Assembly (NCBI GenBank): GCA_045578885.1
Contig: JAZNLE010000101.1
Coordinates: 1-63,130 of the forward strand
Source: Acutalibacteraceae bacterium
GTDB lineage: Bacteria; Bacillota; Clostridia; Oscillospirales; Acutalibacteraceae
Direction: 5' to 3'
Length of the DNA stretch: 63,130 nt
Each line of letters begins with the position of its first letter. Within the stretch, counting starts at the first letter, position 1. Both the position numbers and the translations under genes were made by a program. A model generated the notes under the pieces. It did not search any database. It had not been told where the DNA came from and was given only the letters and a program-made list of their open reading frames with translations. Below, piece by piece: positions 2,576 to 63,057 of the stretch.

Positions 2576-2593
2576 ATAATTTCCCTCCCATAT

Positions 2594-2627: not shown

Positions 2628-2632
2628 ATCTT

Positions 2633-7817: not shown

Positions 7818-7846
7818 TTGACAAAAGCGACGAGTTTCGATATAAT
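7818..7846 (+). promoter_or_regulatory. Consensus sigma-A-type promoter for the tRNA-Met/tRNA-Glu unit
   Basis: TTGACA (7818-7823), 17-nt spacer, TATAAT (7841-7846), about 20 nt upstream of the tRNA 5' end. Confidence 0.75.
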
Positions 7847-24005: not shown

Positions 24006-24034
24006 TTGACAAAACCAACCTTCCGTAATATAAT
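24006..24034 (+). promoter_or_regulatory. Consensus sigma-A promoter upstream of the AraC-like gene
   Basis: TTGACA (24006-24011), 17-nt spacer, TATAAT (24029-24034). Confidence 0.7.
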
Positions 24035-24961: not shown

Positions 24962-25007
24962 TGGTCCGAGTGACAGGACTTGAACCTGCGGCCTCTTGAC
25001 CCCCAGT
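24962..25007. repeat. attL: 46-bp copy of the 3' part of tRNA-Pro
   Basis: Identical to 63012-63057 (TGGTCCGAGTGACAGGACTTGAACCTGCGGCCTCTTGACCCCCAGT). The sequences diverge immediately outside the repeat. Confidence 0.9.
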
Positions 25008-26491: not shown

Positions 26492-26503
26492 AATAAATCT
26501 CCT

Positions 26504-28663: not shown

Positions 28664-28675
28664 ACTTAAACCTCC

Positions 28676-30592
28676 TTAACTTGTACGTCTCCAATAGAAT
28701 TTGTCGCAAAACTCGTCAAGCATTAACGTGGGTGCAACATTAAATGTCATATCTAAGTAAATTGGTTGGTATGTACCATTGTATATTGTGGTAACGCTTT
28801 CTGCACCAATAACATCATCAGCCGTAATAATTCCTGTCTCATAGTTTACTGCTATTAATACTCCTCCGTTCGCATAGTCGCTTGAAGCCATGATACCAAA
28901 AAAACCTGCCGGCATTTGTGTAATACCAAATTTCTCGAAGTTCAGTTTTCCTAAGACAATATGCTCTTTATCAGTAAATGTTTTTTCAGTTACAATACCT
29001 ACTCTTATTCTTATCGTTGTGCCCGACTTTCCAATATACAAACTGCCGCCCACGATCGATGCGCCTGTGTCGGGAGTGAAACACTCTGTAGATAGAATAT
29101 CAGCTGTGTAAATCGACTCATTTCTAAATCCTTTGTCAATACGCTCCCAAGTTCCGCCATATCGTTTTTCAGGGTTGCCTTCAGAGTTGTTTTCAATATA
29201 AACACTTCCTACAGGATATATTTTTTCAAAGTCTCTTTCAGCCATTGCCATAGTGGTTATTCCTGTTTTTGAGATATTGAAAAGTATTGTTCCGTTTCTA
29301 CTCACGGCATAATTTGGGATATTGTTTTTCAATAAGTAATCGTGGCTTGGATGATTTCTGAGTCCACCGTCATATTTAATGCCCGATAATATATGCGCAT
29401 ATTTGTATCGCACCCCGTTTTTGTCTTCATTCACTCCATGACCTTCGGCATCTTGTGTAAAACACATTTTTGGTGCAATACTGCTGTAAAAATCTTCACA
29501 ATGAGTTTGATTAATACCGTGATGTTCTACGTTCATTAAGTCTAAATACCCTATGGTCCCTGCAAGCTTTTCTTGCGCCGCAACATTGATATCCCCAAAG
29601 AAGCCTATTCTTGTTTCACCGAATGTCATAATGCAACAAAGAGAAGTGTTGTTATAATCAACCGTTCCTTCATAATAACTGCTTGTATCACAGTTTCTAA
29701 AATCTAACTTAAGACTTCCAATATTATGAATAGCTCCAACATCTGCCGGGATTTTCTTTTCCAGTCCAAACTTTTCTACAACTGTACTCACTATATTGAT
29801 ATAAGCATCTACATTCGTATAAGTCGTCGGTGGATTTTCTGGCAAAAATATTGTCGCCCCTCTGATATCCAGCTTGTCGCTTAATGGACACACGCTATCA
29901 AGTATTCCCATATCTTCTAGCTCTTGTGTTTTTTTATGAAAGTATGTAAGCAATCCCACATGATCATAATGATAGTGTGTAATATAGATATAATCTATTT
30001 TTTTAACACCAAGTTCATTAAGTGTCTCTATATGAGTTTCTGCTAAATCATAGTCACCGCAATCTATTAAAAGGTTTCTATACTCGCCGTCCACTCGAAT
30101 TTGCATAAGTGCCATAGCCTGTGTATCAACAAGCTTCGTAGTGTCGTGTCGATTAGTTCTGCTATCCAATATATACAATTTTACATTATCGTCAACATAT
30201 TGCTTTATAACCTTATTCGGCACCAAGTTTTCACTGTTGTCAGACATCGCGCCATCAATTACTATATCAATACCAATTTTTTTGCCATTTCCCGAAGCAT
30301 CCCCGCCATCAAAAATAAAAGTAGTTCCCTCACTTAAAGCTGACATTGCCAGCCCCATGAGGTCGGTTTTATCCTTATCGGTCAAACTATAATTTTTGTT
30401 TTCAGGTGTAGTCCAAACAGCAAGTTCCTTCCAAGCATGAACACCGTCGCCTATTTTAAATACTTTCGTTCCATCCTCACAAATAGATATTCCCATTTCG
30501 CCCGAAAGCAAAACAGGATTTAACATTTCCCAATTTTTCGCAGTATCCGTGCGCATCGTATATCTAAGCTCACCATAACACTCTTTTGGCAT
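28676..30592 (-). CDS. Tail fibre paralog carrying an internal metallo-beta-lactamase (ComEC-like) domain
   Basis: N-terminal fibre module (NPVLLSGEMG...KIGDGVHAWKELAVW). The middle has LIDCGD...ITHYHYDHVG...NVEHHGIN. The C-terminal module (PVGSVY..GGTWE...MLDEFCDKFYWRR) is shared with 30604..31872. The start is set at ATG 30592, which has AGGAGG upstream. Confidence 0.7.
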   Translation of the reverse strand: MPKECYGELRYTMRTDTAKNWEMLNPVLLSGEMGISICEDGTKVFKIGDGVHAWKELAVWTTPENKNYSLTDKDKTDLMGLAMSALSEGTTFIFDGGDASGNGKKIGIDIVIDGAMSDNSENLVPNKVIKQYVDDNVKLYILDSRTNRHDTTKLVDTQAMALMQIRVDGEYRNLLIDCGDYDLAETHIETLNELGVKKIDYIYITHYHYDHVGLLTYFHKKTQELEDMGILDSVCPLSDKLDIRGATIFLPENPPTTYTNVDAYINIVSTVVEKFGLEKKIPADVGAIHNIGSLKLDFRNCDTSSYYEGTVDYNNTSLCCIMTFGETRIGFFGDINVAAQEKLAGTIGYLDLMNVEHHGINQTHCEDFYSSIAPKMCFTQDAEGHGVNEDKNGVRYKYAHILSGIKYDGGLRNHPSHDYLLKNNIPNYAVSRNGTILFNISKTGITTMAMAERDFEKIYPVGSVYIENNSEGNPEKRYGGTWERIDKGFRNESIYTADILSTECFTPDTGASIVGGSLYIGKSGTTIRIRVGIVTEKTFTDKEHIVLGKLNFEKFGITQMPAGFFGIMASSDYANGGVLIAVNYETGIITADDVIGAESVTTIYNGTYQPIYLDMTFNVAPTLMLDEFCDKFYWRRTS

Positions 30593-30603
30593 ATTAATTC
30601 CTC

Positions 30604-31872
30604 CTATTTTATTCTTCGCCAATAAAACTTGTCGCAAAATTCATCAAGCATACAACTTGTCGGTATATATATACCTGTCGAAAAAGCCATCTTGTTGCCT
30701 GCACTCAATTGTTCCTCAGGAACAATATCTAAACAATCAAGACTTAAATAGGTTTCTCCGTTTTCATCGTTGAGTATTTGGTGTAATAACAGCATATCCA
30801 CTGTGTTTCCTTCGTCACTCAGGCCTGCTATATAACGTGCCAAAACACTCGCACCCGACGAAACTTTTTTTATTCCTAATTCATTCATATCGAAATGCAA
30901 TAAGCTCACTTGACCATCGGCGATTTCTTTTTCGACTATTGCATTAATGGATAAAAATATCTCATGTGCGCTATATTCGATTCTCAAATAGGTTATTTTT
31001 AAGAAACCCGTACTATGAAAATAATTCGCCTCTAACCCCGCATCTTTTATGCTTTCCTGTAGATAAATTCTTTTAGAAATAAAGCCTTTGTCGAACAACT
31101 CCCATGTTCCGCCAAAGATTTCTGACGGATTTATCAGATTTCCATTATCATCCTTGTTACCTATCCACACACTGCCTACTGGATGTGTGATTTTATCTAT
31201 ATACTCTTTTATCACTTTATTAGGAACAAGATTTTCACTATATTCATTCATTTTATCGTCAATGACAAATTTCGGATTGAAACCTGTCGAAGCGCCTCCG
31301 CCGGATAAAATAAACACCATGTTTCCGTCCTCAAGCGATCTTTTCGCCTCTTCGGTTTTCGCCTGCGCCTCCTGCGCCTCTTTAGCCTTGTCTTGAGCAA
31401 CCTGTGCGCTTGACTTCGCAATCGCGGCAAGAGAGGAAAGCGATTGAAATTCGGCATCGTTATCATTGTTGGCAAAGTTGGAAAACGCAAGCCGAAGCTT
31501 CGCGGTATAACTGCAAAGCTCGTTTTTAACAAACTCGACTTCGCTATTATTTGTACCCAAGACCGAAATCACCAGCTGTACCTCAACAAGTCCACCATAT
31601 CGGGTCAGATAATTCTCTAACTGATATGTAACCGTCGAACTCGTAAGCGTTGCTATGTCCGAACGGTGTACCCCGCGTGAACCGTCGAACCCGTCAAAGC
31701 GGTATACGAGCCGTCCGCTTCCTTTTTTAGTTGTCAGCCAATCCCATAGCGCCGAGCTTATATTAAACTTAAGCTCGGTTACCCTGTGGTCGCCCTGCAC
31801 CCCCGCATCCTGTACTGAAGATGGGTTTATCATTCGGTACAGGTCAACGGTGTAATTGATTGTTTGTCCCAT
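30604..31872 (-). CDS. Tail fibre/spike protein (paralog of the C-terminal module of 28676..30592)
   Basis: 422 aa. It shares SENLVPNKVIKEY, HPVGSVW..FGGTWE and the terminal MLDEFCDKFYWRR with the next gene. Confidence 0.6.
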   Translation of the reverse strand: MGQTINYTVDLYRMINPSSVQDAGVQGDHRVTELKFNISSALWDWLTTKKGSGRLVYRFDGFDGSRGVHRSDIATLTSSTVTYQLENYLTRYGGLVEVQLVISVLGTNNSEVEFVKNELCSYTAKLRLAFSNFANNDNDAEFQSLSSLAAIAKSSAQVAQDKAKEAQEAQAKTEEAKRSLEDGNMVFILSGGGASTGFNPKFVIDDKMNEYSENLVPNKVIKEYIDKITHPVGSVWIGNKDDNGNLINPSEIFGGTWELFDKGFISKRIYLQESIKDAGLEANYFHSTGFLKITYLRIEYSAHEIFLSINAIVEKEIADGQVSLLHFDMNELGIKKVSSGASVLARYIAGLSDEGNTVDMLLLHQILNDENGETYLSLDCLDIVPEEQLSAGNKMAFSTGIYIPTSCMLDEFCDKFYWRRIK

Positions 31873-31885
31873 AAATTTACCTCCT

Positions 31886-31931
31886 TAAAAATAACTAAGT
31901 TAGTTAAAACCGAACATTTTAACTAACTTAG
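31886..31931 (-). terminator. Strong hairpin/terminator between the giant ORF and the fibre genes
   Basis: Perfect 15-bp stem CTAAGTTAGTTAAAA/TTTTAACTAACTTAG with a 7-nt loop, followed on the minus strand by TTATTTTT and then the fibre RBS. Confidence 0.6.
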
Positions 31932-31973
31932 CAAATATTAAAGCGCCTGCCCTATTGGCAAACGCTTTTTAAA

Positions 31974-34900
31974 TTACTTATGCTGATTCAAGAAATAGTT
32001 TTTGATTTTTTGGTCAATATCCATTTCCCGAACTGCAGCCGACTTTTCCGCCTTAGAAACCCCACCGCTTTTATCGGTATCCGCGTTCTTTTTGCTTGTT
32101 GCAATCTTGTAGAGCAAATACTCGCCAACATCAATACCTACCGATTTCATATAAGAAATTCGGGCAATTTCTAAACCGTCATTAATTAAGCTCGCTGACA
32201 TTCCTTCGTCAAGCATTTGTTGTTTTAACCTTTTATAATTCGATTTGTTATTGCGATAAGCTTCATACAATTCATCGAAGCTGTCAGGTTTCGAAACCAT
32301 TGCCTTAACTGTTTTTTCTGTAGCAAGCGACGACATAATATCACTTTCAAGCTTTTGTTTATCCTCATCATCAAACGAAGTAAAGGTTTTATTTTCATCC
32401 AATGATTTCATATACTGTTTTGTTTGCTTTTGCACTTCTCCGCTCTCGCGATAAACCTTTTTTATTCCACTTTTGATTTTAGAATCATCTTTGCCTGAAT
32501 CGATAAGGTCTTTATAAATAGCTTGATACTCTTTTTCATCATCCTTTTCGGCAGCTTTAACCAGCGCTTCGTATTTATCAGAATTGCTATAGTCAAAAAT
32601 CGAAGACTTTATCCCCTGCCAATCAGTTTTGTTATCATTAACGAAAAAGTCTTTATAGAGATTATATGCCGACCTACCATCACGCAACATGTTCTTAACA
32701 GGAATCCCTAGGAAAGCCGCTAAGCTTCCCAATATGCTTTCGAATTTTTGATATTCGGATTTACTATCGCTGTTTAAGGTTTTAACCGACTGTGCCAAAT
32801 CACTGAAAAGGTTCATATCAGCTCTCTCTACTGTGTAACCCTCGAAAATTGAGACAATATCCTTGACAAAAGGAATTAAATTCCAAGGCATTATATCAGA
32901 AACAAAATTGCCAACAAAGTTTCCTACATATTTTTCCAAATATGTTTTATCCTCGTCATCGTCCCGTGCGGCGGTAACAAGTGACTTCAATAATGAATTA
33001 AGCACTACACTACCCACAAAGGCGGCAACCGCATTAACTGCAAATTGTTTGCCTTGCTTTGTGCCGCTCTTAGCTTCTGTAGCCGCTCTCATTAACAAGT
33101 TAAGAGAAACGGTAGGCTCTGACATAAATGCTGTGAGCATTTGAGCGCCTGTGGATTTTGAACGCATTATTTGAGAACGAGAAATAGTAGAATCATAAAC
33201 CTGAGTATAATTTATAACCTCAGTAAACCTTTTACCGCAAGTTTCAAAAAATTCTTTGCTTCCAACCTCAAGCTTGGTGGTGTCAGCTATTTCAGCCTTA
33301 ACCGCCGCCCAAATATGCGCCCAGGTGATTTCATCTGCTTTAGCGGCAAAATATGAAAGCTTGTCATCACGGTAGGTTGAATCTTTGCTCAACAGCGCTT
33401 TTATTTTATTCTTAGCGCCTCTCGGTGTTTCTTGCAAGAGCCAATTTGTTGTTGTAGCTCCCACACCCGTATCAAAACGTCCCATTTCCTTTATGCCGGC
33501 AACAGACGTCCATTTTACACACTGCTGATAATCTCTTTCGGAAAACTTAAATGTTGTCGAAAGGAAGTATTTTGGTTTTATATGTGCCATGGCTCGAATA
33601 ATTGCCGACGGTTGCTGAACCACAACCGAAGCCGAAGCGAAAACTGCTCCCTTTTTAAATAAACTTATCCACCGATTTATTGCCTTATCCGTTTGCGATG
33701 CTCTGACGTTACCGTTCATATCTTCTATAAAGGTCTTAAGATATGTTACTGCAGATTTTCCATAAACGCGTTCTATTTCCGATTTTATATTCTTTGTACT
33801 TATCTCTTCACCCGAAGTGCCGTAATTGAAAATCTTATTCATATTTTCAAGTGGCAAAGTTAACGCATTATACATACACATTCGGTTAATATGGTCTGCG
33901 CACACTGTGGAAAAGTCGGAAAGTATCAACGGATTATTAGCGCCATATACCGTATTCTTTGTAAACGATTGATGCTTAAGCCTTGCTTCGTTCGTTACAC
34001 CCGGTTGTGAATATAAGAAGTTTTGAGCCGAATTATATGGAATATAATAATCCTCATTATATTTCCTGATACCATATAACTCCATCGATACTTCGTTACC
34101 CAGCGCCGCCATATCAGTTGAAAGATATTCAACAAAAGCATTAACGTAAGCGACCTGTTCTTTAGTGAGCCAGTTACCAACCTCAACCATATCCTTGTAA
34201 GTGATTTTGTGCGCCCTGGCATCAATTTCTTCTGAAAACATTTCAATTATCCGCTCACGGCCTTTGGTACTGCTCGACTTAAATTTATTAACTATATCTT
34301 TAAGCTTCTTTGCCGAAGGTTCGATTACAACACCACCACTAAATAAATGCTTTGAATTTTGCGAAGCGTTCTTATGTTCTCTCTTGGCTGTAGCATATAA
34401 AAGCATAGCTTGTTCGCGGGTGATTTTAATTCTATCACCATTTTCGGTAGTGAACTCAAGCTTATCATCCGCCCACTGCGAATAATTGTACTTTTCTTTT
34501 ATTTGCCTTATAAACGCTTTGCCGTTCTCTACATTTTTAAACCACTTATTTTGAGCTTCTACGACATCTCCAAATAAGGTTTTAAAAACACCGCCAATTT
34601 TATCAAAGAAATAAATCGGTGTCATGTTACTGTAAACCACCGTATCATCCAAAGCGTTGGTGACCGCGTTCGCTTTTTTAGATTCCTTTGAAGTTAGTTC
34701 TTGCATAGCAATATGGCCAACTTCGTGAATTTGTTGACTTTTACCTGCAATAAACATATCATTTGCTTGCTTAATGATATGAGATAAATTATCAACAATG
34801 TTTCTGATAAGCAACGTTTCATAAAGGTCGAGATCTCGCAAGGTTTTACCTTCAAGCTTTTCGCGAAGTTTTTTAATAGCATGTAAAATATCCTCGTCAA

Positions 34901-37900
34901 AGCCATTGGTTTCATCCAGAGCCGCCGCCTCATTCATAGCATAAGAATAAGCAAGTTGTATATCACGCAAATCTTTTCTATCAAACGGTGACCTGTCATT
35001 TTCAACAAACACACTAATAAATCTTGCTATTCCTTCTTTAAGTTCTTCGGGCACGTGCTTAGTATTACTATTTGTACGAAGCATCTTATCAATACGGCTT
35101 ACCGTTTTTCTGATATGTTCAATATTCTTTTGCTTCGAAGCTCTTTCTTCGCGTTGCGCAGTAACTTCTTGAGATATTTCGGAACGCCTGCGAGCCAACT
35201 GTTCATTTTGCCGTCTTATTCTTTTTTTAAGTTGATTAGCACGGCGCGCTGAAGATATTTTTTCAGCCCAAACTGAATCTTCCATCTCAGCCAACATATC
35301 ATCCCAATATTTATCCATTGCCGCTTTGTATTCCGACTTACTAATCTCGCCGCTCTCATACATATCAAGCAGCTCGGCGGTTTCACTGGGCATAGAAAAA
35401 GCAGGCTTATTTAAACCTGCTTCATTGTCGCGGTTGGAAAATTGAATATTTTCAATTGTACCATCTTCATTAACTTTATACGCTTCGCCATTATCTGTAT
35501 AGACTAAAGAACCAGGGATTAACCCTGCATCCGTTTCGAAATCTCCATTGCTTTCCCAAGTATCTCCGATGGAATTGCTTTCTGATGATGACTCAACCAT
35601 TTCATCATTTCGTCCCTTTGAATGGGAGTCTTGAGAAGCAACATAATCCCAATCATTTCGTCTTTTCCCACCTTCATAACCTTTAGCCATTTCATAAGGT
35701 GTTGTTGTGCTGGTGTCAATACTACCATAATAGTCGCTCCATTTTTTTATTTCTGCATTTGCTTTTTTAGTGAACCTACTTCTTTTTACTATACTACCAT
35801 TCATATAGCCAGTTGCTTCGTAAAAATATATGTGTTCATCTGTAATAATTACTACATTTTTGCGTTCTCCTTGCCGCATTCCATTTGTTTTGTTTGCAAG
35901 ACTACGGAGAAATATACTTCTTTCGCTATATGGTACTTTTCTTATAAATTCAGACGTGAGTTCGTAACTTTCCCACTTATTATACTGCTCTTCAGAGTAA
36001 CTGTCAACCACTTCTGATGACGGAACAGAAAATCTTATATCCTTCTTATCTTGATTAAACCTTTCAGAAAGAGCTATTACATTTCCATCGTTATCATAGG
36101 TTACAGGCGCCGCGCTTTTAAGCTGTGCGGAATCGAAAACGATATATGATTTTGTATGTCGGTTTTTACCGTCGTCATCGCGCTCAATAATGATACCGTC
36201 ATAATCGCTTTGAGTAATAAAGTCGTTTATTAATCCTTTCGCCTTAACGCTCGCCTTATCGCTCTTAAGCTCCCACTCGTCCATTATTTCACTTTCTTTA
36301 TCCGCAAGTCTTTGATATTTTGGGTGGCTGTATATATCGCGCTTATCGGCATCGGGATTTTCCCTCTTCCATTGGCGCATATAAGACTGCAGTTCCGTTA
36401 TAGCATCATTATCTTTTTCACGGTATTCATTATCAATTTTTTCAACCTCTTTAACCGCTTTGCTATATCCTGGTATCCTTTCGCTCCAAAATTCCTGCGC
36501 TTCGCTCCGATTTTTAAACCTTAATGGATTTTCGGTTTTAGCAAACAATTCCATTTGCTTTTTGCCTTTAAGACCGATATCTTCATCACTTGGCTTCAAA
36601 AATATTCCTGTAGGTAGTTGCCAATCAAACTTACCTGCCGCTTGATTTTCGGTATTGAATTCTGTGAACTCCGCTCCCGTCTGATGATATAACCTTTCTG
36701 TATAACCGTTTGACATAGCGGCATTATCAACCATCTCATGAAGCTGTGCGGTATCACCCGTCTCAACAGTTGACATATACTCCGCATCAGTAGGTATCGA
36801 AAATTTTAAATTTTCTTTTTCGACTTTTTCGTTTGCCGAAATCGTTTTACCGTGACCCAAGTCAGGAACTATAGATTCTCTATACTTAGGTGAAATCGGA
36901 ACACGTTTTTGAGCTTCGCGCGCCTCATACTCTCCTTTTGTGTACCAATAAGCTGTTTCAGGTGTATGTTGTTCACCGGTTCGCTTATCGATTGGCAATT
37001 TACCATCTCTTTTAAATCTTGCGTTCCAATATCCAACATCGGAACCGAATTCACGATTTTCCAATCGTTGCAAAGCATGTTGCATTTCATGAATTATTAT
37101 ACCGTTAATCTCTTTATACGGATTTTCATACGCATCTCTTGGCATCTTTCCGCCAAGTTCTTCCAACTTTTTATTAGCTTTTAAAACCTCGCTTGCAGAA
37201 ATTCTGATCGTGTAATTTTTAGCATCAAATTCACCTAATCTATCATCTTCAAAATCACATATTTCAAAATTAAAACTCTTCAATATCGGAAAAGCCTTGA
37301 AAAGCTTAGGATGCTTAATAAAATCTTCAACTTTACCTTTTCTGTAAACAGAGCCATCGCCATTCGTAGCAATATCTTTTTTAGCATTCCCTAATGGAAA
37401 GAATTTCATTGAACGGTCTTCTATTTCATATATCCATATTCCCCCGGTATCACGCATAATACCTTTTCCCCGCCAAATTTCATTGCGAATTTTTTCAGGA
37501 GAGTAATTCATATCCTGCAATTGCTTTTCCATCTGTTCAGCTTCTTCTATAAGCGCGGTATCCTGTACCCTCGCAAAACTAAACTGAAGCTTATTTTTGG
37601 AATTATTTCCGCTCTCCTGCGTATAATTATTATTGACAAATGACTCATTATTGAGTATAATGTCATTAGAAGATGAACCATCAAGGGCCTGTGAGCCCAC
37701 CACGGCTATTAACTTAGCTGAAGATGGAACATCTTCTTTTATTTTACCGACGTTATAAACTGTAGCGACTGTGCCATTATGACCAACAGAAAAGCGGATT
37801 TTATAATACGCGCCATCAAAATCTTCAAAATAAGCTGTGCGATACTCAAAACCATCTTTAGCAAAATCGTGTTTCTTTTCATCGTTAGTCAGCGGTTTAT

Positions 37901-40900
37901 TTTCTTTTAATGCAGTTTCGGCAATTTCATCTATATGTGATTCTACTCGCAATTTTACTGCAAATTCTTCATCCGACATTTTTACAGGTTTTCCATCTAC
38001 CAACTTATAATTATCTCTTGCTTTATCAGCGGTATCGTCCATAGTTATTGTTAAAATATCTCCTTCTATTGTATGAATATCAATAGAAGGTTTATTTTTT
38101 AATAACCTTTTAAAGAAATTTGTTATATCTGCTCGTTGGTCTTTTAATGTGGTTCCATTAATTACTTTTCTACTGGCTTTTACATAAGTGTTACCATTTT
38201 CCAAAACAGCAATATCAAACTGCAAATCTCCACCATCCTCGGTTGGAGTTTCTTTTTTTGTATCGACAGCCTCCGAGATCATACGGTTGAACATATCTTC
38301 AAGCCTCGAAATCTCAAGGCTTATATCGCGCTCACCTGATAATTTCTTCTTAATATAAGAAATAAAATCTCTGATATATTCAATTACCGTTTTTCTCTCT
38401 TCGTAGCTTAGGTCACTGAGCATATCTTCAAGCATTGTTGTATTGTCTGTAAAAATACATTCACCAACAAAGTCAGCAATCATTTCGCAATGAAGCTCCG
38501 CGCGGTCCTCGACACTTAGTTCCCCATTTTTATCATAAGCATATCCGCGAACTTTGGCAATTTTCAGAAGATATGCATCTTCTAAATTATTAACTTTTCT
38601 ATATCCGGTTTCTTTTCCAAGCCAATTTTTAAAAGCTCTTGATTTCTTTACCGCCTTTACGAACTTTTCATACTGCGCAGTACCTTCGCCAAAGTGAGTT
38701 AATTCATGTTTCAAAATAAATGTCACAGGGTTATACACCGTATATCCCATATGTATTGTCTTAGTATTACGGTCATAATAACCGTCCGGAAGGATATCTC
38801 CATCATTAAACTCATAACCGTAACTGCGCAATAGCTCGGCTGTAATATGTTCAAACTCAACCTTAACCCCTAGGTTATCTGCAATACTTTTTATAAAAGA
38901 CTGCTCTTTAGCGGTTGTATGTCGCCGTTGCTTACTTTTTTTGCGCACTGACAACATCTCGATATTTGAGTTCTCGGCATTACCGTCCTCTACCGTCTGT
39001 TGAACACCTAAACCCTGAACATCATTATTAGCGGTCTGTAAGCGTTCCTCAACACCTTGCTTTTCACTTCTCTGTTCGGGGGTAAGCTCCACATCAGGAG
39101 TATTAAGCAACTGTGTTTCTGTTTCAGTTAAGGGCGGCGCTGAAACATTATCAACCGCCGCCGAAGAATTTTGAGCAGTATCAAATGTTATAGCATTTCG
39201 TATAACAGCTTCAGTCTTTTCAAGGGAAGACAGTCTATTATTCATACCTTCCGTCCAAGCTTCGCTGTTTTTAATTTCGGTTATAATCTGCTGTGCTTTA
39301 ACATTCTTACCAATATCTTCAGCATTAGCGGTTTCAATTTTACCGTTTGTAGCAACTTGTGTTAAATATTCTGTAAGCTTTTGCGTGGTTTTAAAATCAA
39401 CACCGAGTTCTTGTGCACGTTCGCCTACAGCGGTTTTTATAGCAGTTCCTTTTTGTGCAGAAGCATCTGACATCACCTGAACCGCCAATCCGCCAATTTT
39501 AGCAGCAGTCATTTTACCGCTTTGCTGTATTTCGGTTGCCAATTTATATGATTGACTATTGCCATCCATAGAAAGTGCGGCATTTATAATTTCACTTTCT
39601 GCTTCATTAGCCGCAATAACTTTTCCTATCGAAGAAGTCTTTTTATAAGATGCACTCGAACTTATAGATGCAAAGCCAAAGCCCATCAATGCACCGCTTG
39701 CACCCGCTTCTAAAACTTGTAATCCAAGTTTTGTGGCTGCTTTCTTTTTGGCTTCTTCTGGCGTGTAACCATTGTCTATAAATTCCTGCACCATTATACT
39801 ATAATTAGAAATACCACCATTCATAGCATAGTCATACAAGATATTGGCGACTTCAGTAGCTGCCTCTTCGGAAAAATTGGTAGCCATTGATTTAACAAGA
39901 TTACGCGCATAATCCTTAAATCCTGTGACAGCGCCCTCTTTCATTGCGTTTAATTGACCTATAGAAAACTTTTCAAAAAAGCCTTCAAAAACACCTGCAG
40001 CAACGCCACCCCAAAAAGCTTGAGAACTATCACCACCACGTGACAAAATATCATTTGTGGTACTACCTGCAGCCGATAACCCCAAAGTAACAGCGCCAAC
40101 AGCTCCCATAGGTGCAACCACTAATGAATCCGCTCCCGACATTACGGTATTGTAGACAAAATCAAAAGCATCCCAGTTTCCTATCTCAACATCTACATTA
40201 TCGGTAACACCAGAGCGCAAAGCATTTGTTATTTTCGTGGCTGAATTTTCAGAAATTTCCCCAGTTGTTGCATAATTAAAAATATTTTTTCCTTGCTCCA
40301 CAGCACTCGCCAGATTTGTACCTATAGAAGCAATCGAACCCAATACAGCAGTAGCTTCATTCTTACTCGCGAAATTATAAGCACTTTTAACATTCTTCTC
40401 AGTAAGTCTTTCTTGTAAGTCTTCATCTAAGAACTTTAAAAATTCTTCTGCCTTCGAAATGTCGATATTGTACAGATAATTATAAATACCTTTCTCTCTT
40501 TCATTCATAAAAGCATATTTCGAATAATTTTCCTGTCCTATCCCGGAACCTACATATACACTCTGAAAATTATTGAAATTATTTATATATTCGTGTCGCC
40601 AATCTACTGTTGTATCGCCCATTAAATGTGAAGCGTTATTTATACCAGTTTTATTAGTCGTTTGAGCCACACCATTCGGCAATTTAGAATAATAATTTAT
40701 AGATTTAAAATCCTCATATTCTTTTTTTGCTTTATCATACTGTGTTTTTGTATAATGCACAGGTGATAAGTCGCTACCCATCTGAAGAAATTTAACCAAA
40801 ATGTTTCTGTCATCATTCGCTTTTGTCTCTTCATAGTTTTTCTTCGCATTATTCATTACGTCACGAAGACGTAGCTCCTCAACGTAATTGGCATCATAAC

Positions 40901-41192
40901 TCTTTGACGGAATAGTAGTTTTTAGATTTTCGGTAGCTTGATTGTTGTTAAGTTTTTTAACCGCCGCCGACTGCATATTAGAAGGTGTAAGCGCACCCTG
41001 TGGAAAAGGGGAAAATCGCTTTATATCGTTTTGAAGAATAGTTTTCTTTTCTTCCCGTACAATAGCTTCATTACTAATACTGCCTATCGTTCCATCAGCC
41101 GAAGATAATCCGCTGACTCTTTTCGCTTTAGTTGTAGCATTTTCGCCACTGATAGATTTTCCAACTATCGACAATCCACTTTTTGATATCAT
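31974..41192 (-). CDS. Giant (3072 aa) multidomain virion-associated protein, polyvalent-protein-like, with two HExxH motifs
   Basis: Uninterrupted 9219-nt ORF with RBS AAGGAG. It has a Gly/Ala-rich hydrophobic block near aa 360-520, HELTH at aa 829-833 (nt about 38694-38708), HEMQH at aa 1368-1372 (nt about 37077-37091), and an LYHQTGAEFTEF block. The C-terminal half is long and helical. Confidence 0.75.
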   Translation of the reverse strand: MISKSGLSIVGKSISGENATTKAKRVSGLSSADGTIGSISNEAIVREEKKTILQNDIKRFSPFPQGALTPSNMQSAAVKKLNNNQATENLKTTIPSKSYDANYVEELRLRDVMNNAKKNYEETKANDDRNILVKFLQMGSDLSPVHYTKTQYDKAKKEYEDFKSINYYSKLPNGVAQTTNKTGINNASHLMGDTTVDWRHEYINNFNNFQSVYVGSGIGQENYSKYAFMNEREKGIYNYLYNIDISKAEEFLKFLDEDLQERLTEKNVKSAYNFASKNEATAVLGSIASIGTNLASAVEQGKNIFNYATTGEISENSATKITNALRSGVTDNVDVEIGNWDAFDFVYNTVMSGADSLVVAPMGAVGAVTLGLSAAGSTTNDILSRGGDSSQAFWGGVAAGVFEGFFEKFSIGQLNAMKEGAVTGFKDYARNLVKSMATNFSEEAATEVANILYDYAMNGGISNYSIMVQEFIDNGYTPEEAKKKAATKLGLQVLEAGASGALMGFGFASISSSASYKKTSSIGKVIAANEAESEIINAALSMDGNSQSYKLATEIQQSGKMTAAKIGGLAVQVMSDASAQKGTAIKTAVGERAQELGVDFKTTQKLTEYLTQVATNGKIETANAEDIGKNVKAQQIITEIKNSEAWTEGMNNRLSSLEKTEAVIRNAITFDTAQNSSAAVDNVSAPPLTETETQLLNTPDVELTPEQRSEKQGVEERLQTANNDVQGLGVQQTVEDGNAENSNIEMLSVRKKSKQRRHTTAKEQSFIKSIADNLGVKVEFEHITAELLRSYGYEFNDGDILPDGYYDRNTKTIHMGYTVYNPVTFILKHELTHFGEGTAQYEKFVKAVKKSRAFKNWLGKETGYRKVNNLEDAYLLKIAKVRGYAYDKNGELSVEDRAELHCEMIADFVGECIFTDNTTMLEDMLSDLSYEERKTVIEYIRDFISYIKKKLSGERDISLEISRLEDMFNRMISEAVDTKKETPTEDGGDLQFDIAVLENGNTYVKASRKVINGTTLKDQRADITNFFKRLLKNKPSIDIHTIEGDILTITMDDTADKARDNYKLVDGKPVKMSDEEFAVKLRVESHIDEIAETALKENKPLTNDEKKHDFAKDGFEYRTAYFEDFDGAYYKIRFSVGHNGTVATVYNVGKIKEDVPSSAKLIAVVGSQALDGSSSNDIILNNESFVNNNYTQESGNNSKNKLQFSFARVQDTALIEEAEQMEKQLQDMNYSPEKIRNEIWRGKGIMRDTGGIWIYEIEDRSMKFFPLGNAKKDIATNGDGSVYRKGKVEDFIKHPKLFKAFPILKSFNFEICDFEDDRLGEFDAKNYTIRISASEVLKANKKLEELGGKMPRDAYENPYKEINGIIIHEMQHALQRLENREFGSDVGYWNARFKRDGKLPIDKRTGEQHTPETAYWYTKGEYEAREAQKRVPISPKYRESIVPDLGHGKTISANEKVEKENLKFSIPTDAEYMSTVETGDTAQLHEMVDNAAMSNGYTERLYHQTGAEFTEFNTENQAAGKFDWQLPTGIFLKPSDEDIGLKGKKQMELFAKTENPLRFKNRSEAQEFWSERIPGYSKAVKEVEKIDNEYREKDNDAITELQSYMRQWKRENPDADKRDIYSHPKYQRLADKESEIMDEWELKSDKASVKAKGLINDFITQSDYDGIIIERDDDGKNRHTKSYIVFDSAQLKSAAPVTYDNDGNVIALSERFNQDKKDIRFSVPSSEVVDSYSEEQYNKWESYELTSEFIRKVPYSERSIFLRSLANKTNGMRQGERKNVVIITDEHIYFYEATGYMNGSIVKRSRFTKKANAEIKKWSDYYGSIDTSTTTPYEMAKGYEGGKRRNDWDYVASQDSHSKGRNDEMVESSSESNSIGDTWESNGDFETDAGLIPGSLVYTDNGEAYKVNEDGTIENIQFSNRDNEAGLNKPAFSMPSETAELLDMYESGEISKSEYKAAMDKYWDDMLAEMEDSVWAEKISSARRANQLKKRIRRQNEQLARRRSEISQEVTAQREERASKQKNIEHIRKTVSRIDKMLRTNSNTKHVPEELKEGIARFISVFVENDRSPFDRKDLRDIQLAYSYAMNEAAALDETNGFDEDILHAIKKLREKLEGKTLRDLDLYETLLIRNIVDNLSHIIKQANDMFIAGKSQQIHEVGHIAMQELTSKESKKANAVTNALDDTVVYSNMTPIYFFDKIGGVFKTLFGDVVEAQNKWFKNVENGKAFIRQIKEKYNYSQWADDKLEFTTENGDRIKITREQAMLLYATAKREHKNASQNSKHLFSGGVVIEPSAKKLKDIVNKFKSSSTKGRERIIEMFSEEIDARAHKITYKDMVEVGNWLTKEQVAYVNAFVEYLSTDMAALGNEVSMELYGIRKYNEDYYIPYNSAQNFLYSQPGVTNEARLKHQSFTKNTVYGANNPLILSDFSTVCADHINRMCMYNALTLPLENMNKIFNYGTSGEEISTKNIKSEIERVYGKSAVTYLKTFIEDMNGNVRASQTDKAINRWISLFKKGAVFASASVVVQQPSAIIRAMAHIKPKYFLSTTFKFSERDYQQCVKWTSVAGIKEMGRFDTGVGATTTNWLLQETPRGAKNKIKALLSKDSTYRDDKLSYFAAKADEITWAHIWAAVKAEIADTTKLEVGSKEFFETCGKRFTEVINYTQVYDSTISRSQIMRSKSTGAQMLTAFMSEPTVSLNLLMRAATEAKSGTKQGKQFAVNAVAAFVGSVVLNSLLKSLVTAARDDDEDKTYLEKYVGNFVGNFVSDIMPWNLIPFVKDIVSIFEGYTVERADMNLFSDLAQSVKTLNSDSKSEYQKFESILGSLAAFLGIPVKNMLRDGRSAYNLYKDFFVNDNKTDWQGIKSSIFDYSNSDKYEALVKAAEKDDEKEYQAIYKDLIDSGKDDSKIKSGIKKVYRESGEVQKQTKQYMKSLDENKTFTSFDDEDKQKLESDIMSSLATEKTVKAMVSKPDSFDELYEAYRNNKSNYKRLKQQMLDEGMSASLINDGLEIARISYMKSVGIDVGEYLLYKIATSKKNADTDKSGGVSKAEKSAAVREMDIDQKIKNYFLNQHK

Positions 41193-41204: not shown

Positions 41205-42587
41205 TTAAATTATCTCTTCCCATTTTCCGTTTTTTGTATTCTTACGCACTTCAACATATTCGTTTAGCATATCACTCCACATCCAAAAATGTATTCCTGA
41301 AGCATTGCTTTCCGTTCTAAATACGTTTTGCTTTCTACCTAATGTTTCAACAGGAGTATTATCTTCATATTTAAGTTTAATATTTTCATCGCCAATAGTT
41401 ATATTATCAGGCTGATACCCTACACCACTTGCAAATGTACCGTTATAAACATCGGGGTTTATTCTGTTATTACCTTGAACATAAGGGTTTTCTTCCTTTT
41501 TGAATGTAGATTTTTTATTAGTATTCCTATCAAAATACGTTACGGTGCCATCACCGTTATCGGTTACCATTACACCGTTATCTTCTAATAAACCTTGATA
41601 ATTCCTACTTAAAAATCCGTTCGTTGAACTTATAATACCTTTCGACTTATTTGGAGCTTCCGGACTTTTCGAACCACCTGTCGTCGTTTCTTTTATAGCC
41701 TTTTTCGCGTTTGTATAAAGAGACTTTACTTCTTTTTTGCTCATACCCGACAATTCAATCAAATCATCACTCGGCATAAATCCCGCGTTAGCATAACCAA
41801 TTACTATCGTTTTATAGTCCGCTGTTGTAGTAGCGCTATTTACAAGATTACATATTCCTTGCAAATAGGTTTTATCCAACCCTGATTTCGCGATAATATC
41901 TTCAGAAGGCATCTTGCCTTGTTCAACACTGTACATTGCCAAAGAACTATAATTTTCTCTTGTGGTAGCACCATCACTTATAGCTTTTAAAGTTTTCACA
42001 TACTCAGGGCTCCAACCCGACATACCAATTTCATAATCGGTAGGCGACTCGCCGTTTGCTATTCTTCCTGTTATAATATTTTGATAAGACAATTGGTCTT
42101 GTGACTGTTTATCAAGACCGTACTGTAATGCGCGGTCGCTGTACGTTTGTTCTATGTTCGCATTCGCCACAGTTCTGTTTTGCTCAATAGTATCAAGTGC
42201 CTGACGGCGAGAAAACTCAAGGCTGTCGATCGAGCTTTGCTTTTGCCTGTCGATAGCCGCTTTATTATTACCGTAAGAAAGCTGTACCGCCGTTTGCTGT
42301 GTTCGGTTAAGTCCCGAATCGCGAAGACCCAAGTTTGCCATACTCTCGGCAACCTGTCGCTCGTTTATAGCCTTTTGAACCGCATTTTCTCGGTATTGGT
42401 TTTCATAAGCTCTTCCTTGTTCAAAAACTTGGGTATCATACCCCTCGTTTGTGCTTTTAACCTGTCCATCATATAAGGTATTAGAATCGGTAAGTGCCTG
42501 TTCTTTTGAGGATGCATAAAACTCCTTACCCTCGGCGGTATAATCGTCAATTGTTTTTGCCTTGCCTTTTTTATTTGTAATCGCCAT
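41205..42587 (-). CDS. Virion protein of unknown function with three about 45-aa internal repeats
   Basis: 460 aa. Repeats run G-x-(M)PS/T-D/E-(D)-I/L-I..SG(L/M)..K.(Y/V) (GESPTDYEIGMSGW / GKMPSEDIIAKSGL / GFMPSDDLIELSGM). The start overlaps the upstream stop. Confidence 0.5.
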   Translation of the reverse strand: MAITNKKGKAKTIDDYTAEGKEFYASSKEQALTDSNTLYDGQVKSTNEGYDTQVFEQGRAYENQYRENAVQKAINERQVAESMANLGLRDSGLNRTQQTAVQLSYGNNKAAIDRQKQSSIDSLEFSRRQALDTIEQNRTVANANIEQTYSDRALQYGLDKQSQDQLSYQNIITGRIANGESPTDYEIGMSGWSPEYVKTLKAISDGATTRENYSSLAMYSVEQGKMPSEDIIAKSGLDKTYLQGICNLVNSATTTADYKTIVIGYANAGFMPSDDLIELSGMSKKEVKSLYTNAKKAIKETTTGGSKSPEAPNKSKGIISSTNGFLSRNYQGLLEDNGVMVTDNGDGTVTYFDRNTNKKSTFKKEENPYVQGNNRINPDVYNGTFASGVGYQPDNITIGDENIKLKYEDNTPVETLGRKQNVFRTESNASGIHFWMWSDMLNEYVEVRKNTKNGKWEEII

Positions 42588-44848
42588 TATCTTGCGCCTC
42601 CTAAAGTTCTGTATTTTAATATTACGCTGTCGACCGCCAATGTGCCCTTGCTTTCAAATTTAAGCCCGAGCCGCAGCACTTGCTTTATACAAGGAAATAC
42701 CGCTCGGCTTGTAATATAGCCTGCGGTATAACTCTGTGTATCTGCGCCGTCGGTAAACGCCTGTTCTTCTTCAGTGCCGTTTTCAGTTATAAGGTGAAGA
42801 TTTATCGCTTCGCCGTCATTATTTCCCAATTGAAGATTTAACTGTTCAATGTTTTTGCGAATATGCGGAAGCCCAAAATCAAAAATCTTTGTTGTGAATG
42901 AAGAAACTATTTCACTTTCCGTTCCCGACAGTTTATCTTTATTCGCTCTTTGGTCAAAGTAAAAGCTCTCCACTTGATATTTATTATCAATAACACTTAT
43001 ATCTAACGCCGTTAGCTTATCTCCAAAAACAGAGAGGCTTTTACCTTTCGGCACTTCCCATAAATACCAAGGTATCTTTATATTGGCATCCTCAGTCTTT
43101 GAATAACTTGCAACGTGGGTATAGCCGTAGCAATTGTAATCCATAAGAAATATATTGTCGCCGAGCAAAAGGCAATAATATCCGTCCCAATCACACGCCG
43201 ATACAGTATCGATAGCACCTATTTCCTGTATCTTGCGCTTAACCATTTCGGAAACGCTGAAAATACTGCGCTCGTTGTATTGGCTCTCGCTTACCAAGGT
43301 GTAAACATTGTTATTGTTACCAAGCCATACAAGACGGTTTCTGCAAAGCTGAATAGTATCAGGATAAGGACAACCTATGCTCGAGTTTACTTGTGTAAGC
43401 GGGAAATAAACGCTCGAAGAAGCATAATCAATGACATTTTGATTTATAAGGTCCTCTGCAGTAATGTTTGTATTTTGTCGATACTCTGTAAACCAAGTTT
43501 CGTATTCTTTAAATATAAAAAGTTTATCCGCTTGTTTGCCAAAGCCTGTTACCGCTCCCGTTTCATTACCCACATAAAAATATGAATTTTCGGGAAAATA
43601 AAGCGGGTTATTAAGACCCGACCACACAACCAAATCGGCATTGTTATTCTTACTGTTACCGCAAAGAAATAACCTCGTACCACCCGAAAGCCCCTCAGAA
43701 CCACCGCCAAACCACTCACATTGTGTCATTTTGAATACTTTATCTTTTTCTTCTTTCCATACATAAGGCGCAATTATAACAATATCGTCTTCACCGCCAT
43801 CGGCAAAAATAACAGGTGCAGTTGGTTTTGCCTTTTCTTCTTCAGTGTCGCTGTTACGCCAATAATCCTCCTCGTCATTCTCGCTGATTGTAGCAACGTT
43901 TTTGTATTTTGTTTTATCTGTCACAAACTTTTCATCCGTATTTTCATCGCAATAATAGAAAGAAATTCGGTTTTTCCAAACCCTCATTAAAAGTTTATCG
44001 TCTTTATTAGGTCCTGCCTCTTCCCAAGTAGTTGTTTTACCTTCTCTTCGTGAATCTTCAGAAATTTCAACTTTATGTTCGCATGGGGTGCCGTTATAAG
44101 TAAATATGGCTTTTACTATTACAGGTTCTTCACCTTTTTCTTTTTCCTCTATTGAAATTTCATACTTATCAACCCTTTTAAGAAGATGATACTGCATTTT
44201 GTGTTTTTGGTCTTCTTCTTTTACGATTTCGGGGTTATAAGAGTTATAACTCATTTCATAATAATCACTTAAAAGATTATATCCCTCAATCATTACTCCG
44301 TTAACTTCACTTGAAGTAGCCTTTGCCGATTTTAATTTTTTGCACTGTATCATTACTTTCGGAATATATGTATTTTCTACCTTTTCCCACTTTGATTTTT
44401 CTGCAGACATGTCAAATTTATATATTGTTTTATTCGAAGTAAAGCAATATAGCTCTTTTGACTTTTGACAAACAAAATAACTTGTAGATTCTTCGGTTAT
44501 TGAAGTTATCGCCGTTACATTGTCGCCATAATTCCAAAAGAAATTTATTTTTCCCGAATATACCACCGAACACAACTGTCCCTCGGCATTATCTGAATAA
44601 TTGTAACAGTTGTGTTGTCTAATTTTTGGCTTTTTATTTGTGCCGCTATCACCAAGAGAGATAGTGTTGCTGTTCTGCAGCATACCTGCGCGGGTTCTCA
44701 AAACTCCGTCAAACCACCACATATTCTTGCAGTCTGTCAGCTGATTATCCAACACTTCGCTTATACCGTCGCGCATATTAAGACCGCCCGCCAAATCGAG
44801 AAGGCTAAGTATTTGCGACGGTTGTTTATTTTTTATAGGCAATCTCAT
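42587..44848 (-). CDS. Large virion structural protein (tail/nozzle candidate), function unassigned
   Basis: 753-aa ORF with RBS AAGGAGG, positioned between the portal/adaptor and the internal proteins. Confidence 0.5.
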   Translation of the reverse strand: MRLPIKNKQPSQILSLLDLAGGLNMRDGISEVLDNQLTDCKNMWWFDGVLRTRAGMLQNSNTISLGDSGTNKKPKIRQHNCYNYSDNAEGQLCSVVYSGKINFFWNYGDNVTAITSITEESTSYFVCQKSKELYCFTSNKTIYKFDMSAEKSKWEKVENTYIPKVMIQCKKLKSAKATSSEVNGVMIEGYNLLSDYYEMSYNSYNPEIVKEEDQKHKMQYHLLKRVDKYEISIEEKEKGEEPVIVKAIFTYNGTPCEHKVEISEDSRREGKTTTWEEAGPNKDDKLLMRVWKNRISFYYCDENTDEKFVTDKTKYKNVATISENDEEDYWRNSDTEEEKAKPTAPVIFADGGEDDIVIIAPYVWKEEKDKVFKMTQCEWFGGGSEGLSGGTRLFLCGNSKNNNADLVVWSGLNNPLYFPENSYFYVGNETGAVTGFGKQADKLFIFKEYETWFTEYRQNTNITAEDLINQNVIDYASSSVYFPLTQVNSSIGCPYPDTIQLCRNRLVWLGNNNNVYTLVSESQYNERSIFSVSEMVKRKIQEIGAIDTVSACDWDGYYCLLLGDNIFLMDYNCYGYTHVASYSKTEDANIKIPWYLWEVPKGKSLSVFGDKLTALDISVIDNKYQVESFYFDQRANKDKLSGTESEIVSSFTTKIFDFGLPHIRKNIEQLNLQLGNNDGEAINLHLITENGTEEEQAFTDGADTQSYTAGYITSRAVFPCIKQVLRLGLKFESKGTLAVDSVILKYRTLGGAR

Positions 44849-44860
44849 TTTAAGACCTCC

Positions 44861-45220
44861 TTAATATTCGGGCACAGGCAAAATGTCCTTATACTCCGTA
44901 ACGCGCGATAATGTCGGTCTACGGTTCTGATACTCTGCAGACCAAAACGCCTGTGCATTATCGTCACCCTCACTATTTGCGATATAACTCGCCACACCGC
45001 AAGCGAAAACATCCGCTGCCTTGTCCGATATTTCAAATTCTTCTGCGAGATTATCAAGCCTCTGCTTTTTAATTCCGCACATACGCGCAATATCGCCGTA
45101 AACCATATTTAGAAGCGGTAAAGACTTCTGTAATATTCTCTGTGTCAACTGCAAATTACCGTTATTCTCGGCATAACCCAAAAGCCCTAAGGCTCTGTTC
45201 ACAATATCATTTCCTGTCAT
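44861..45220 (-). CDS. Small structural protein (head-tail adaptor candidate)
   Basis: 119 aa. It is coupled to the portal stop by an ATGA overlap. No recognisable motif. Confidence 0.4.
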   Translation of the reverse strand: MTGNDIVNRALGLLGYAENNGNLQLTQRILQKSLPLLNMVYGDIARMCGIKKQRLDNLAEEFEISDKAADVFACGVASYIANSEGDDNAQAFWSAEYQNRRPTLSRVTEYKDILPVPEY

Positions 45221-47013: not shown

Positions 47014-47206
47014 TATCATTTACCTCTTTTCAAATAAACAATTATAGGGACAGGCGTCCCCGACTGTCCGTTATTCTATTCTCTCCTTCAAAGGTGTTAT
47101 TTGCTCCCAAATAAATGCACTTCGCTCCTTTAAAAGTGTCTTTTACTCCAAAAGTGTCTATATGCGACAATAAAGCCAACCGAAAAATCGATTGGCTTTA
47201 CTTTAA

Positions 47207-58785: not shown

Positions 58786-58900
58786 TTTTTACACTTCCTT
58801 AATTATTTATTATTTGACATCCGTCATAATTTGGTTTATAATATTTATGGTTAATATTTCTTTGCCGTCTTCGGAATTTCCGCTTCCGAGGGCGGTATTT

Positions 58901-63011: not shown

Positions 63012-63057
63012 TGGTCCGAGTGACAGGACTTGAACCTGCGGCCTCTTGACCCCCAGT
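63012..63057. repeat. attR: 46-bp core inside the intact tRNA-Pro
   Basis: Identical to 24962-25007. Confidence 0.9.

Follow-up and report, generated by a model that had tools for sequence, protein, structure and literature searches.

What kind of protein takes up a quarter of the coding capacity of a prophage? The question is raised by a 63,130-nt stretch of DNA from an Acutalibacteraceae bacterium (assembly GCA_045578885.1, contig JAZNLE010000101.1, positions 1 to 63,130), here called the window, which contains a 38.0-kb prophage beside the host ATP-synthase operon. The prophage is integrated into a tRNA-Pro (GGG) gene: a 46-bp att direct repeat, corresponding to the 3ʹ part of the tRNA gene, occurs at 24962-25007 and again at 63012-63057, and a tyrosine integrase adjoins at 61741-62877. 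Because the repeats bracket 38,004 bp, a single gene, termed the giant, makes up 24.3% of the element. This open reading frame (ORF) begins with ATG and runs through 3072 codons with 0 internal stops, encoding one chain of 345 kDa, exactly as an earlier sequence-only reading of the DNA had delimited it. The giant is probably a polyvalent protein of the phage type described by Iyer et al. 2017, one that would be packaged in the virion and ejected at infection of gut Clostridia, with two anchor regions as its chassis, a metallopeptidase (MPTase) for self-processing and enzymatic cargo acting as early effectors.

Polyvalent proteins are believed to encounter host defences before any other phage product does, and almost none have been studied experimentally. 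The likeness of the giant to this class, proposed from the letters alone, is supported both by profile searches and by what its homologues conserve. Within 3072 aa, two zincins, an ADP-ribosyltransferase (ART) and an LPD23 domain are predicted, and thus at least two disparate domain activities. Family-specific models are matched as well, PF18760 in the giant itself and LPDs, PBECR and MuF_C in its relatives, and the gene is prophage-encoded, as the att sites and integrase attest, and lies beside late and virion genes. Like the proteins described by Iyer et al. (PMC5512222), in which the MPTase is the hub domain, the giant is a very long multidomain chain in a late or virion neighbourhood that combines a putative zincin MPTase with an H-Y-D-type ART and an LPD. 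Unlike the phage versions in that study, for which MuF is the usual virion-attachment domain, it has no match to a MuF N-domain; N-terminal (~400 aa) and C-terminal (~950 aa) anchors frame its cargo instead.

The identity of the cargo emerged through dissection. Pfam found nothing when searched with the full 3072 aa, and the ART appeared only with 500-aa pieces; an NCBIfam search of the giant and a phmmer search of the whole giant against PDB sequences likewise returned nothing. In the 500-aa pieces, aa ~1495-1695 match PF18760 with 41.1 bits against a gathering threshold of 31.2 (E 3.9e-10, profile positions 3-134 of 140). The sequence-only reading had recognised an ART-like block here, with LYHQTGAEFTEF at aa 1501 and GIFLKPS at aa 1529; the recognition stands, but the H-Y-E label it attached does not, since Iyer et al. 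(PMC5512222) describe the ARTs of polyvalent proteins as H-Y-D, with His on strand 1, Tyr on strand 2 and Asp on strand 5. Invariant across 10 sequences are H1503 (in YHQT), T1505, G1529, F1531, K1533, Y1664, D1665, D1672, Q1690 and K1692. The AlphaFold2 (AF2) model has a predicted local distance difference test (pLDDT) score below 50 around H1503 and does not fix the placement of H, Y and D on strands 1, 2 and 5. Against the PDB, the ART profile matched only apolipoprotein-like helices, by way of its helical insert.

Two of the other domains between the anchors are putative zincins. Three HExxH motifs occur in the giant, compared with 0.04 expected from composition. The two that had been spotted by eye, HELTH at aa 829 and HEMQH at aa 1368, are conserved together with a downstream Glu, but a third, HEVGH at aa 2156 in the C anchor, had been overlooked and is not conserved. 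In zincin 1, no variation is seen among 11 diverse sequences at G804, H829, E830, H833, E903 or the preceding GYYD strand, and the H/E/H triad is at least 90% conserved in a 39-member alignment. The zincin 1 profile matches the metalloprotease domain of ArdC (6sna and 6i89; E 7e-4), with the GYYD..IH strand aligning to 6sna, and reaches E ~0.06 with the minigluzincin MJ1213. With its HExxH and downstream Glu, this domain is a predicted metallopeptidase of the polyvalent MPTase type. In the zincin 2 region, a Trp, a Glu, an Asp, H1294, H1368, E1369, Q1371, H1372 and Q1375 are invariant in nine sequences, and the family pattern reads HE(M/I)QHAxQ followed downstream by GExEAR. The assignment of zincin 2 to a DUF6782-type family is made through an aligned homologue, P0084, whose corresponding region matches DUF6782 ('putative metallopeptidase') with 29.1 bits against a threshold of 27. 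The adjoining LPD23-like bundle is weak in the giant itself (E 0.17) and clear in P0084 (E 1.8e-16), and AF2 pLDDT is 77-92 over the whole LPD23-zincin segment. As a third active site, HEVGH was rejected: among 39 relatives, H2156 is replaced by E, S or D and H2160 by S, N or T, and this motif is probably due to chance.

Two further stretches complete the region between the anchors. The domain at aa 1000-1191 recurs in 11 family proteins, with AF2 confidence below 50 and no Pfam assignment. LPD3 was considered for it and dropped: one homologue gave E 0.0019, below threshold, and a hidden Markov model of the domain misses all LPD3-annotated relatives. The insert that follows the ART (aa ~1742-1931) matched no family and is absent from the closest relative, P0122.

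The anchors themselves are distinctive in composition and conservation. The Gly/Ala-rich hydrophobic segment that the sequence-only reading had pointed out is real: over aa 201-600, Gly plus Ala account for 0.21-0.25 of residues versus 0.09-0.15 in the rest of the giant, and a Kyte-Doolittle plot peaks at aa 350-375. Together with aa ~388-410 and ~492-512, this peak marks the hydrophobic helices of the N anchor, which retains conserved glycines (G366, G371, G396-x3-G400 and G500-x3-G504) and conserved acidic residues (E403, E407, E442, E443, E447 and E495). No Pfam or NCBIfam family matched the N anchor. The C anchor matches phrog_22978 (E 1e-231), a PHROG annotated as of unknown function, and is also without a Pfam or NCBIfam family. 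The helical C-terminus expected from the sequence is reproduced by an AF2 model of aa 1950-3072, which is nearly all helix (pLDDT 75, predicted template modelling (pTM) score 0.66). In the C anchor, conservation reaches at least 92% at seventy positions, of which many are polar; among the conserved residues are H2282, N2366, H2434, Q2526, Q2527, R2533, K2568, D2620, TQVYDS 2663-2668, R2677 and E2692. A hydrophobic 19-mer at aa 2717-2735 is followed by the acidic RDDDED, of which RDDD 2743-2746 is conserved.

The C anchor is widespread. A phmmer search with it found 3,695 clusters (50% identity representatives) at E ≤1e-3, in which the match is the C-terminal end of long proteins: nearly all of the 150 best have lengths of 2000-4700 aa, and the short members among these look like fragments. 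In a Foldseek search, the best PDB match of the C anchor had E 0.17 with template modelling (TM) scores of at most 0.12, and BFVD gave 83 matches with E <1e-3, all of them second or third chunks of giant proteins from uncultured tailed phages. These are named by their cargo: 'Nuclease', 'PolyVal ADP-ribosyltransferase', 'MuF C-terminal domain' and 'LPD'. The sole protein from a cultured phage among the C-anchor fold matches is a 'structural protein' of Tenacibaculum phage Gundel_1 (A0A8E5E9U1_2; E 3e-9 but TM 0.24, hence weak); Gundel is a 78.5-kb marine podovirus, and from the model comparison this match may connect the C anchor, remotely, with a virion protein.

Searches found 931 homologues of the giant, and uninterrupted forms of 2000-4700 aa lie on hundreds of independent contigs. 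In a local BLAST map of architecture against the 119 best homologues, the N anchor is found in ~118, the C anchor in ~103 and both in 102, with 765-2858 aa of variable cargo in between; coverage of the regions between the anchors is patchy. The cargo of relatives includes the Pfam families ART-PolyVal, LPD3, LPD23, LPD38, PBECR3, PBECR5, MuF_C, Zeta_toxin and DNA_methylase, and enzyme cargo is thus visibly exchanged within the family, which offers a catalogue of candidate early effectors (ARTs, zincins, PBECR RNases, a Zeta toxin and a methylase). The MPTase is the steadier element: its motif pair occurs in 184 of the 246 family proteins, and the median of its relative position is 0.31. The turnover is evident even in P0122, which is 93% identical to the giant in the C anchor versus 57% in the N anchor and cargo. 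The sequence-only reading had found the order of domains unfamiliar; that order is not unique, and several relatives are collinear with the giant.

Some phages encode the modules in separate, adjacent genes. At locus L042 (10001-19887), the N anchor has a gene to itself (527 aa), and the next gene (2732 aa) combines LPD1 and LPD3 with the C anchor. At L043 (457-9198), three genes follow one another: an N-anchor gene of 728 aa, a PBECR3 gene of 314 aa and a gene exceeding 1862 aa that encodes the ART and C anchor. The N-anchor form of 728 aa has 164 member sequences. Because the modules occur as separate genes elsewhere, the giant can be viewed as a concatenation of units able to work as separate polypeptides, which fits a near-constant MPTase that cuts the fused form. 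The same observation could be taken to mean that several genes were joined here by a frame-restoring assembly or annotation error, and no public read sets are listed for the assembly. Such an artefact is nevertheless so unlikely as to be close to negligible, because hundreds of independent contigs carry uninterrupted homologues; moreover, single collinear ORFs are found in independent assemblies, the C-anchor clusters described above consist almost entirely of long proteins, and the frame of the giant is clean over 9.2 kb with consistent composition.

The giant is a clear representative of a large family of ~40-kb phages of gut Clostridia, as yet uncultured. All relatives' loci in genomes come from gut Clostridia metagenome-assembled genomes (Acutalibacteraceae, Eubacteriales, Faecousia, Ruminococcus and Lachnospiraceae), and IMG/VR contigs with relatives cluster at 38-46 kb. 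Among 50,697 GenBank phages, tblastn returned nothing beyond a 4.8-kb faecal fragment and a weak match in F116, with no cultured relative detectable by BLAST. The anchor pair, its abundance and its lack of a curated family or solved relative seem under-described. One contig (JAFTXX010000014.1) carries two giants with C anchors, L026 at 63.8-86.3 kb and L027 at 104.0-122.3 kb, about 40 kb apart and with identical match statistics; the pair could be a tandem polylysogeny or an assembly duplication.

Where the gene sits is informative about its function. The giant belongs to the late operon, with genes in portal and tail-hub positions on one side and fibre genes on the other, as had been described from the sequence. 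Its ribosome-binding site, AAGGAGAG, lies 7 nt upstream of the ATG, and the stop codon of the preceding gene lies 12 nt before that start. The order is TerS, TerL, a scaffold-like protein, the major capsid protein (MCP), a small ORF, the portal, proteins of ~120, ~700-760 and ~320-460 aa, the giant, a protein of ~400 aa (with Gp10_C in relatives), fibres, endolysin and holin. This order is conserved in loci L001-L003, L005, L008, L011, L019 and L046. Directly 3ʹ of the giant's stop, two terminator-like hairpins of 12 and 17 pairs (31894..31968, minus strand) fill the ~100-nt gap to the next gene, which suggests that the transcription unit ends or is attenuated there.

The neighbourhood also bears on whether the giant could be the tape-measure protein of a long-tailed phage with extra domains, an alternative that the sequence-only reading had left standing. 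Tape-measure proteins can have Gly/Ala-rich hydrophobic segments and long helical regions, both of which the giant resembles, and some carry peptidase domains. However, the giant had 0 tape-measure matches in PHROG, Pfam or NCBIfam, and its helical regions are interrupted by predicted globular enzyme domains. The absence of an obvious tail tube or tape measure, remarked on earlier, is in keeping with Pfam and PHROG scans covering every ORF of 100 aa or more in the structural module: none matched a tail tube, a sheath, a tape measure, a pair of chaperones, Dit or Tal. The portal is of the SU10/P22 type found in podoviruses (the P22_portal match is weak and lies in the portals of relatives). Tape-measure length is ~1.5 Å per residue, and 3072 aa would imply a tail of ~460 nm. 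A tape-measure role is thus highly improbable. From the portal type and these absences, the phage would be short-tailed and podovirus-like.

For a polyvalent protein of such a phage, a course of events can be proposed. The giant would be transcribed with the late structural operon, packed in the capsid, as are podovirus internal or ejection proteins elsewhere, and, at infection, expelled through the portal and tail before or together with the DNA. The N anchor, with its Gly-zipper amphipathic helices, and the all-alpha C anchor, with one long hydrophobic helix, would form a chassis that targets the giant to the procapsid and, after ejection, inserts into or spans the host envelope. The anchors offer a place to ask how a 345-kDa protein packs in a small capsid and crosses a Gram-positive envelope. 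The near-constant ArdC-type MPTase after the N anchor might then cleave the polypeptide into working pieces, and the freed cargo (the aa 1000-1191 domain, the LPD23-zincin and the H-Y-D-type ART) would hit host proteins at the onset of infection. Between relatives, the cargo would be swapped by recombination.

Packaging and ejection are suggested by gene position and by precedent (phi24B gp47, N4 gp50 and T7 gp14-16). In T7, the internal-core genes gp13-16 sit between gp11/12 and gp17; the position of the giant matches theirs, which supports packaging and ejection by analogy. T7 gp14/gp15/gp16 and P22 gp7/gp16/gp20 are likewise encoded between tail-hub genes and a fibre gene, and the giant shares with these ejection proteins a hydrophobic and largely helical character, suited to a switch from a soluble to a membrane-inserted state. 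Where they are sets of three proteins, the giant is a single fused chain, and putative effector enzymes form part of it. No homology to characterised podovirus ejection proteins was found in searches of PDB sequences with the whole giant or by Foldseek with the C anchor.

Giant virion proteins are known in podoviruses. The N4 virion RNA polymerase gp50 (~3500 aa) is encapsidated and ejected, and its zincin MPTase region is needed for encapsidation; P1 DdrB is processed before packaging (PMC5512222). The giant shares with gp50 the combination of great size and a zincin MPTase region; no RNA polymerase domain was found in it by Pfam, NCBIfam or PDB sequence searches, or among folds of aa 741-1750 and 1950-3072. 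The Stx phage phi24B protein gp47 (2811 aa) carries LPD1/5/38 and a MuF_C metallopeptidase. Proteomics finds it in abundance in virions, although the cryo-EM map does not show it, and it has been proposed to be an ejection protein (bioRxiv 10.64898/2026.04.10.717836). Both gp47 and, as predicted, the giant are very long polyvalent proteins of temperate podoviruses; unlike the giant, gp47 belongs to a phage of a Gram-negative host, has another domain set and shows no detectable homology to either anchor. In C. clostridioforme LM41, the ~41-kb prophages phi1 and phi4 are predicted podoviruses with an unusually large 8-kb ORF, ~20% of the genome, whose LPD3 similarity was interpreted via Iyer et al., and their spontaneously released particles look podovirus-like (PMC11318856). 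These are likened to the present prophage by description, not by sequence, as large ORFs in podo-like prophages of gut Clostridia, and they differ in that the LM41 ORF lies at the prophage 3ʹ end. For the ART, the model proposed by Iyer et al. (PMC5512222) is T4 Alt, which is delivered by the virion and modifies host proteins at infection onset. However, Alt is a stand-alone protein of ~76 kDa from the R-S-E clade, and the giant's ART is of the H-Y-D (Tox-ART-HYD2) type in a 345-kDa chain. Since the LM41 ORFs and the virion-borne gp47 were reported earlier, the giant joins an already known kind; it extends a computational concept of 2017 and observations of 2024-2026, and current ideas are not overturned.

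The enzymes of the giant might instead act from outside the cell, with the protein serving as an external component of the short tail, such as a central fibre, tail tip or 'tail lysin'. The giant directly precedes fibre-like genes, a peptidoglycan-binding protein of 481 aa precedes the split giant in L042, and virion zinc peptidases can be muralytic. On the other hand, an NAD-dependent enzyme requires cytoplasmic NAD+, and the PBECR RNases, Zeta toxin and DNA methylase of relatives have cytoplasmic targets. No beta-helix, fibre or collagen-like features are present, and the C anchor is all-alpha with hydrophobic helices. While the phi24B authors suggest peptidoglycan degradation for gp47 (bioRxiv 10.64898/2026.04.10.717836), polyvalent ARTs are postulated to modify host proteins after delivery (Iyer et al., PMC5512222). 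An external position is, on balance, improbable.

Several findings weigh against a packaged and ejected polyvalent protein. For packaging, ejection and processing, there is no direct evidence from any family member. The transmembrane-like helices reach only moderate hydrophobicity (two peaks exceed 1.8), and a peptidoglycan hydrolase domain was not found in the giant. Comparison of the anchors with phi24B gp47 gave no detectable homology (BLAST E ≥0.67; hhalign probability ≤1.8%). The comparisons with T7, P22 and N4 are analogies, because the C anchor has no PDB fold match and the giant no PDB sequence match; likeness to known ejection proteins accordingly means 'works like', not membership. 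Podovirus morphology is likewise only inferred, because the 753-aa and 460-aa neighbours, which had no match among PDB sequences, are not identifiable as nozzle or needle. Finally, of the two routes to a domain dissection that had been suggested, profile searches in pieces gave the ART, but structure prediction gave no significant PDB match for the cargo: the AF2 model of aa 741-1750 (1010 aa) is weak (pLDDT 63, pTM 0.36), and Foldseek with it did not confirm the zincin and ART folds. The best relevant match was jannalysin (4jix; E 2.4, probability 0.57, TM 0.45 over 82 columns).

A further feature of the gene is the presence of promoter consensus sequences inside it. The exact sigma-70 consensus, TTGACA-N17-TATAAT, occurs 6 times in the window versus 0.04 expected. 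Four copies lie outside the giant, at 7818-7846 (+), 24006-24034 (+), 58814-58842 (+) and 60047-60075 (-), in plausible sites: before tRNA-Met/Glu genes, before an ORF at 24113 and, twice, in the prophage early region. The other two, one sense and one antisense, flank the edges of the LPD23-zincin-ART cassette and are directed away from it. The sense promoter, at the junction of the ART and the insert, is identical at 29 of 31 nt in locus L005 and 28 of 31 in L006; its upstream flank is 68% identical, the sequence downstream is unrelated, and the ORF runs unbroken through it in the giant, L005 and L006. The antisense promoter is present in L006, where the whole region is ~93% identical, and absent from L005. 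An internal promoter as a family-wide feature was not supported among the family members checked.

These promoters favour a different role, in which the giant is a lysogen-expressed weapon or defence factor outside the virion, similar to polymorphic toxins or superinfection-exclusion proteins. The anchors contain membrane-like helices, and hosts may capture polyvalent proteins for defence (Iyer et al., PMC5512222). However, no in-frame start codon with a Shine-Dalgarno sequence occurs within 1.5 kb downstream of the sense promoter, and internal promoters do not extend across the family. The giant also lies within the late structural operon and is coupled to it in translation, a position kept in many relatives and in viral contigs of 38-46 kb, and it has neither a signal peptide nor nearby secretion-system genes. 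A lysogen factor of this kind is therefore quite improbable. A conjecture that retains the virion protein, and that is better described as doubtful, is that the anchors are an undescribed, abundant delivery chassis of phages from the gut and the environment, whose cassettes recombine at short junctions, with the internal promoters giving antisense RNA or a C-terminal product in the lysogen. If so, internal transcription would give a virion protein a further level of regulation or immunity. The features of the giant and its flanking genes are collected in the table.

Table. Features of the giant gene and its neighbourhood (positions in the window; aa numbering of the giant)
Feature	Position	Strand	Basis or remark
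Whole gene, 3072-aa polyvalent protein (predicted)	31974..41192	-	ORF and 931 homologues
Poorly conserved N-terminus, aa 1-199	40596..41192	-	few homologues cover it; no Pfam match
N anchor, aa ~200-600, Gly/Ala-rich, GxxxG-type hydrophobic helices	39393..40595	-	conservation, hydropathy
Zincin 1 (putative ArdC/polyvalent-type MPTase), aa ~760-990	38223..38915	-	conservation and ArdC profile match
HELTH, aa 829-833	38694-38708	-	third ligand E903
Cargo domain, aa 1000-1191 (~190 aa)	37620..38195	-	27 invariant columns in 5 sequences
Antisense consensus promoter, aa ~1174-1185	37633-37661	+	exact sigma-70 match
LPD23-like helix bundle (~1205-1260) and putative zincin 2, aa 1195-1490	36723..37610	-	conservation, homologue profiles
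HEMQH, aa 1368-1372	37077-37091	-	downstream GEYEAR
ART-PolyVal ADP-ribosyltransferase, aa 1491-1730, with ~110-aa helical insert	36003..36722	-	PF18760
Sense consensus promoter, aa ~1729-1738, ART/insert junction	35979..36007	-	exact sigma-70 match
Lineage-specific insert, aa ~1742-1931 (small domain and acidic/Ser-rich linker)	35400..35969	-	BLAST map
C anchor, aa ~1980-2920, all-alpha	32433..35255	-	PHROG, AF2 model, conservation
HEVGH, aa 2156-2160, third HExxH	34713..34727	-	not conserved
C-terminal helical tail, aa 2921-3072, kept in close relatives only	31977..32432	-	BLAST map, AF2 model
Syntenic upstream block, portal to 460-aa gene	41205..47019	-	order recurs in relatives
Portal	45217-47019	-	phrog_156 and SU10_portal matches
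119-aa protein	44861-45220	-	syntenic upstream gene
753-aa protein	42587-44848	-	syntenic upstream gene
460-aa protein	41205-42587	-	syntenic upstream gene, directly before the giant
Downstream block: 422-aa protein (orthologues carry Gp10_C), two fibre-like proteins (653 and 719 aa), endolysin	25574..31872	-	profile scans, synteny

Among the downstream genes, the 653-aa fibre-like protein (28676-30637, minus strand) has a fibre- or tail-assembly-like N-terminal region. Its aa ~183-238 match the N-terminal part of a metallo-beta-lactamase fold (PF00753, E 1.3e-9), which is unusual in a fibre, and the same region matches phrog_392 ('metal-dependent hydrolase') and, faintly, Apyc1. In the early region of the prophage, 55171-56079 (minus strand) encodes a replication initiator of the REP_ORF2-G2P type (E 2.4e-9), so that a tailed prophage of 38 kb here carries a Rep of the rolling-circle type. 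In the host part of the window, two tandem paralogous gene sets lie at 8917-12467 and 13567-17231 (minus strand), each consisting of a transglutaminase-core protein of ~790-820 aa followed by a protein of ~400 aa.

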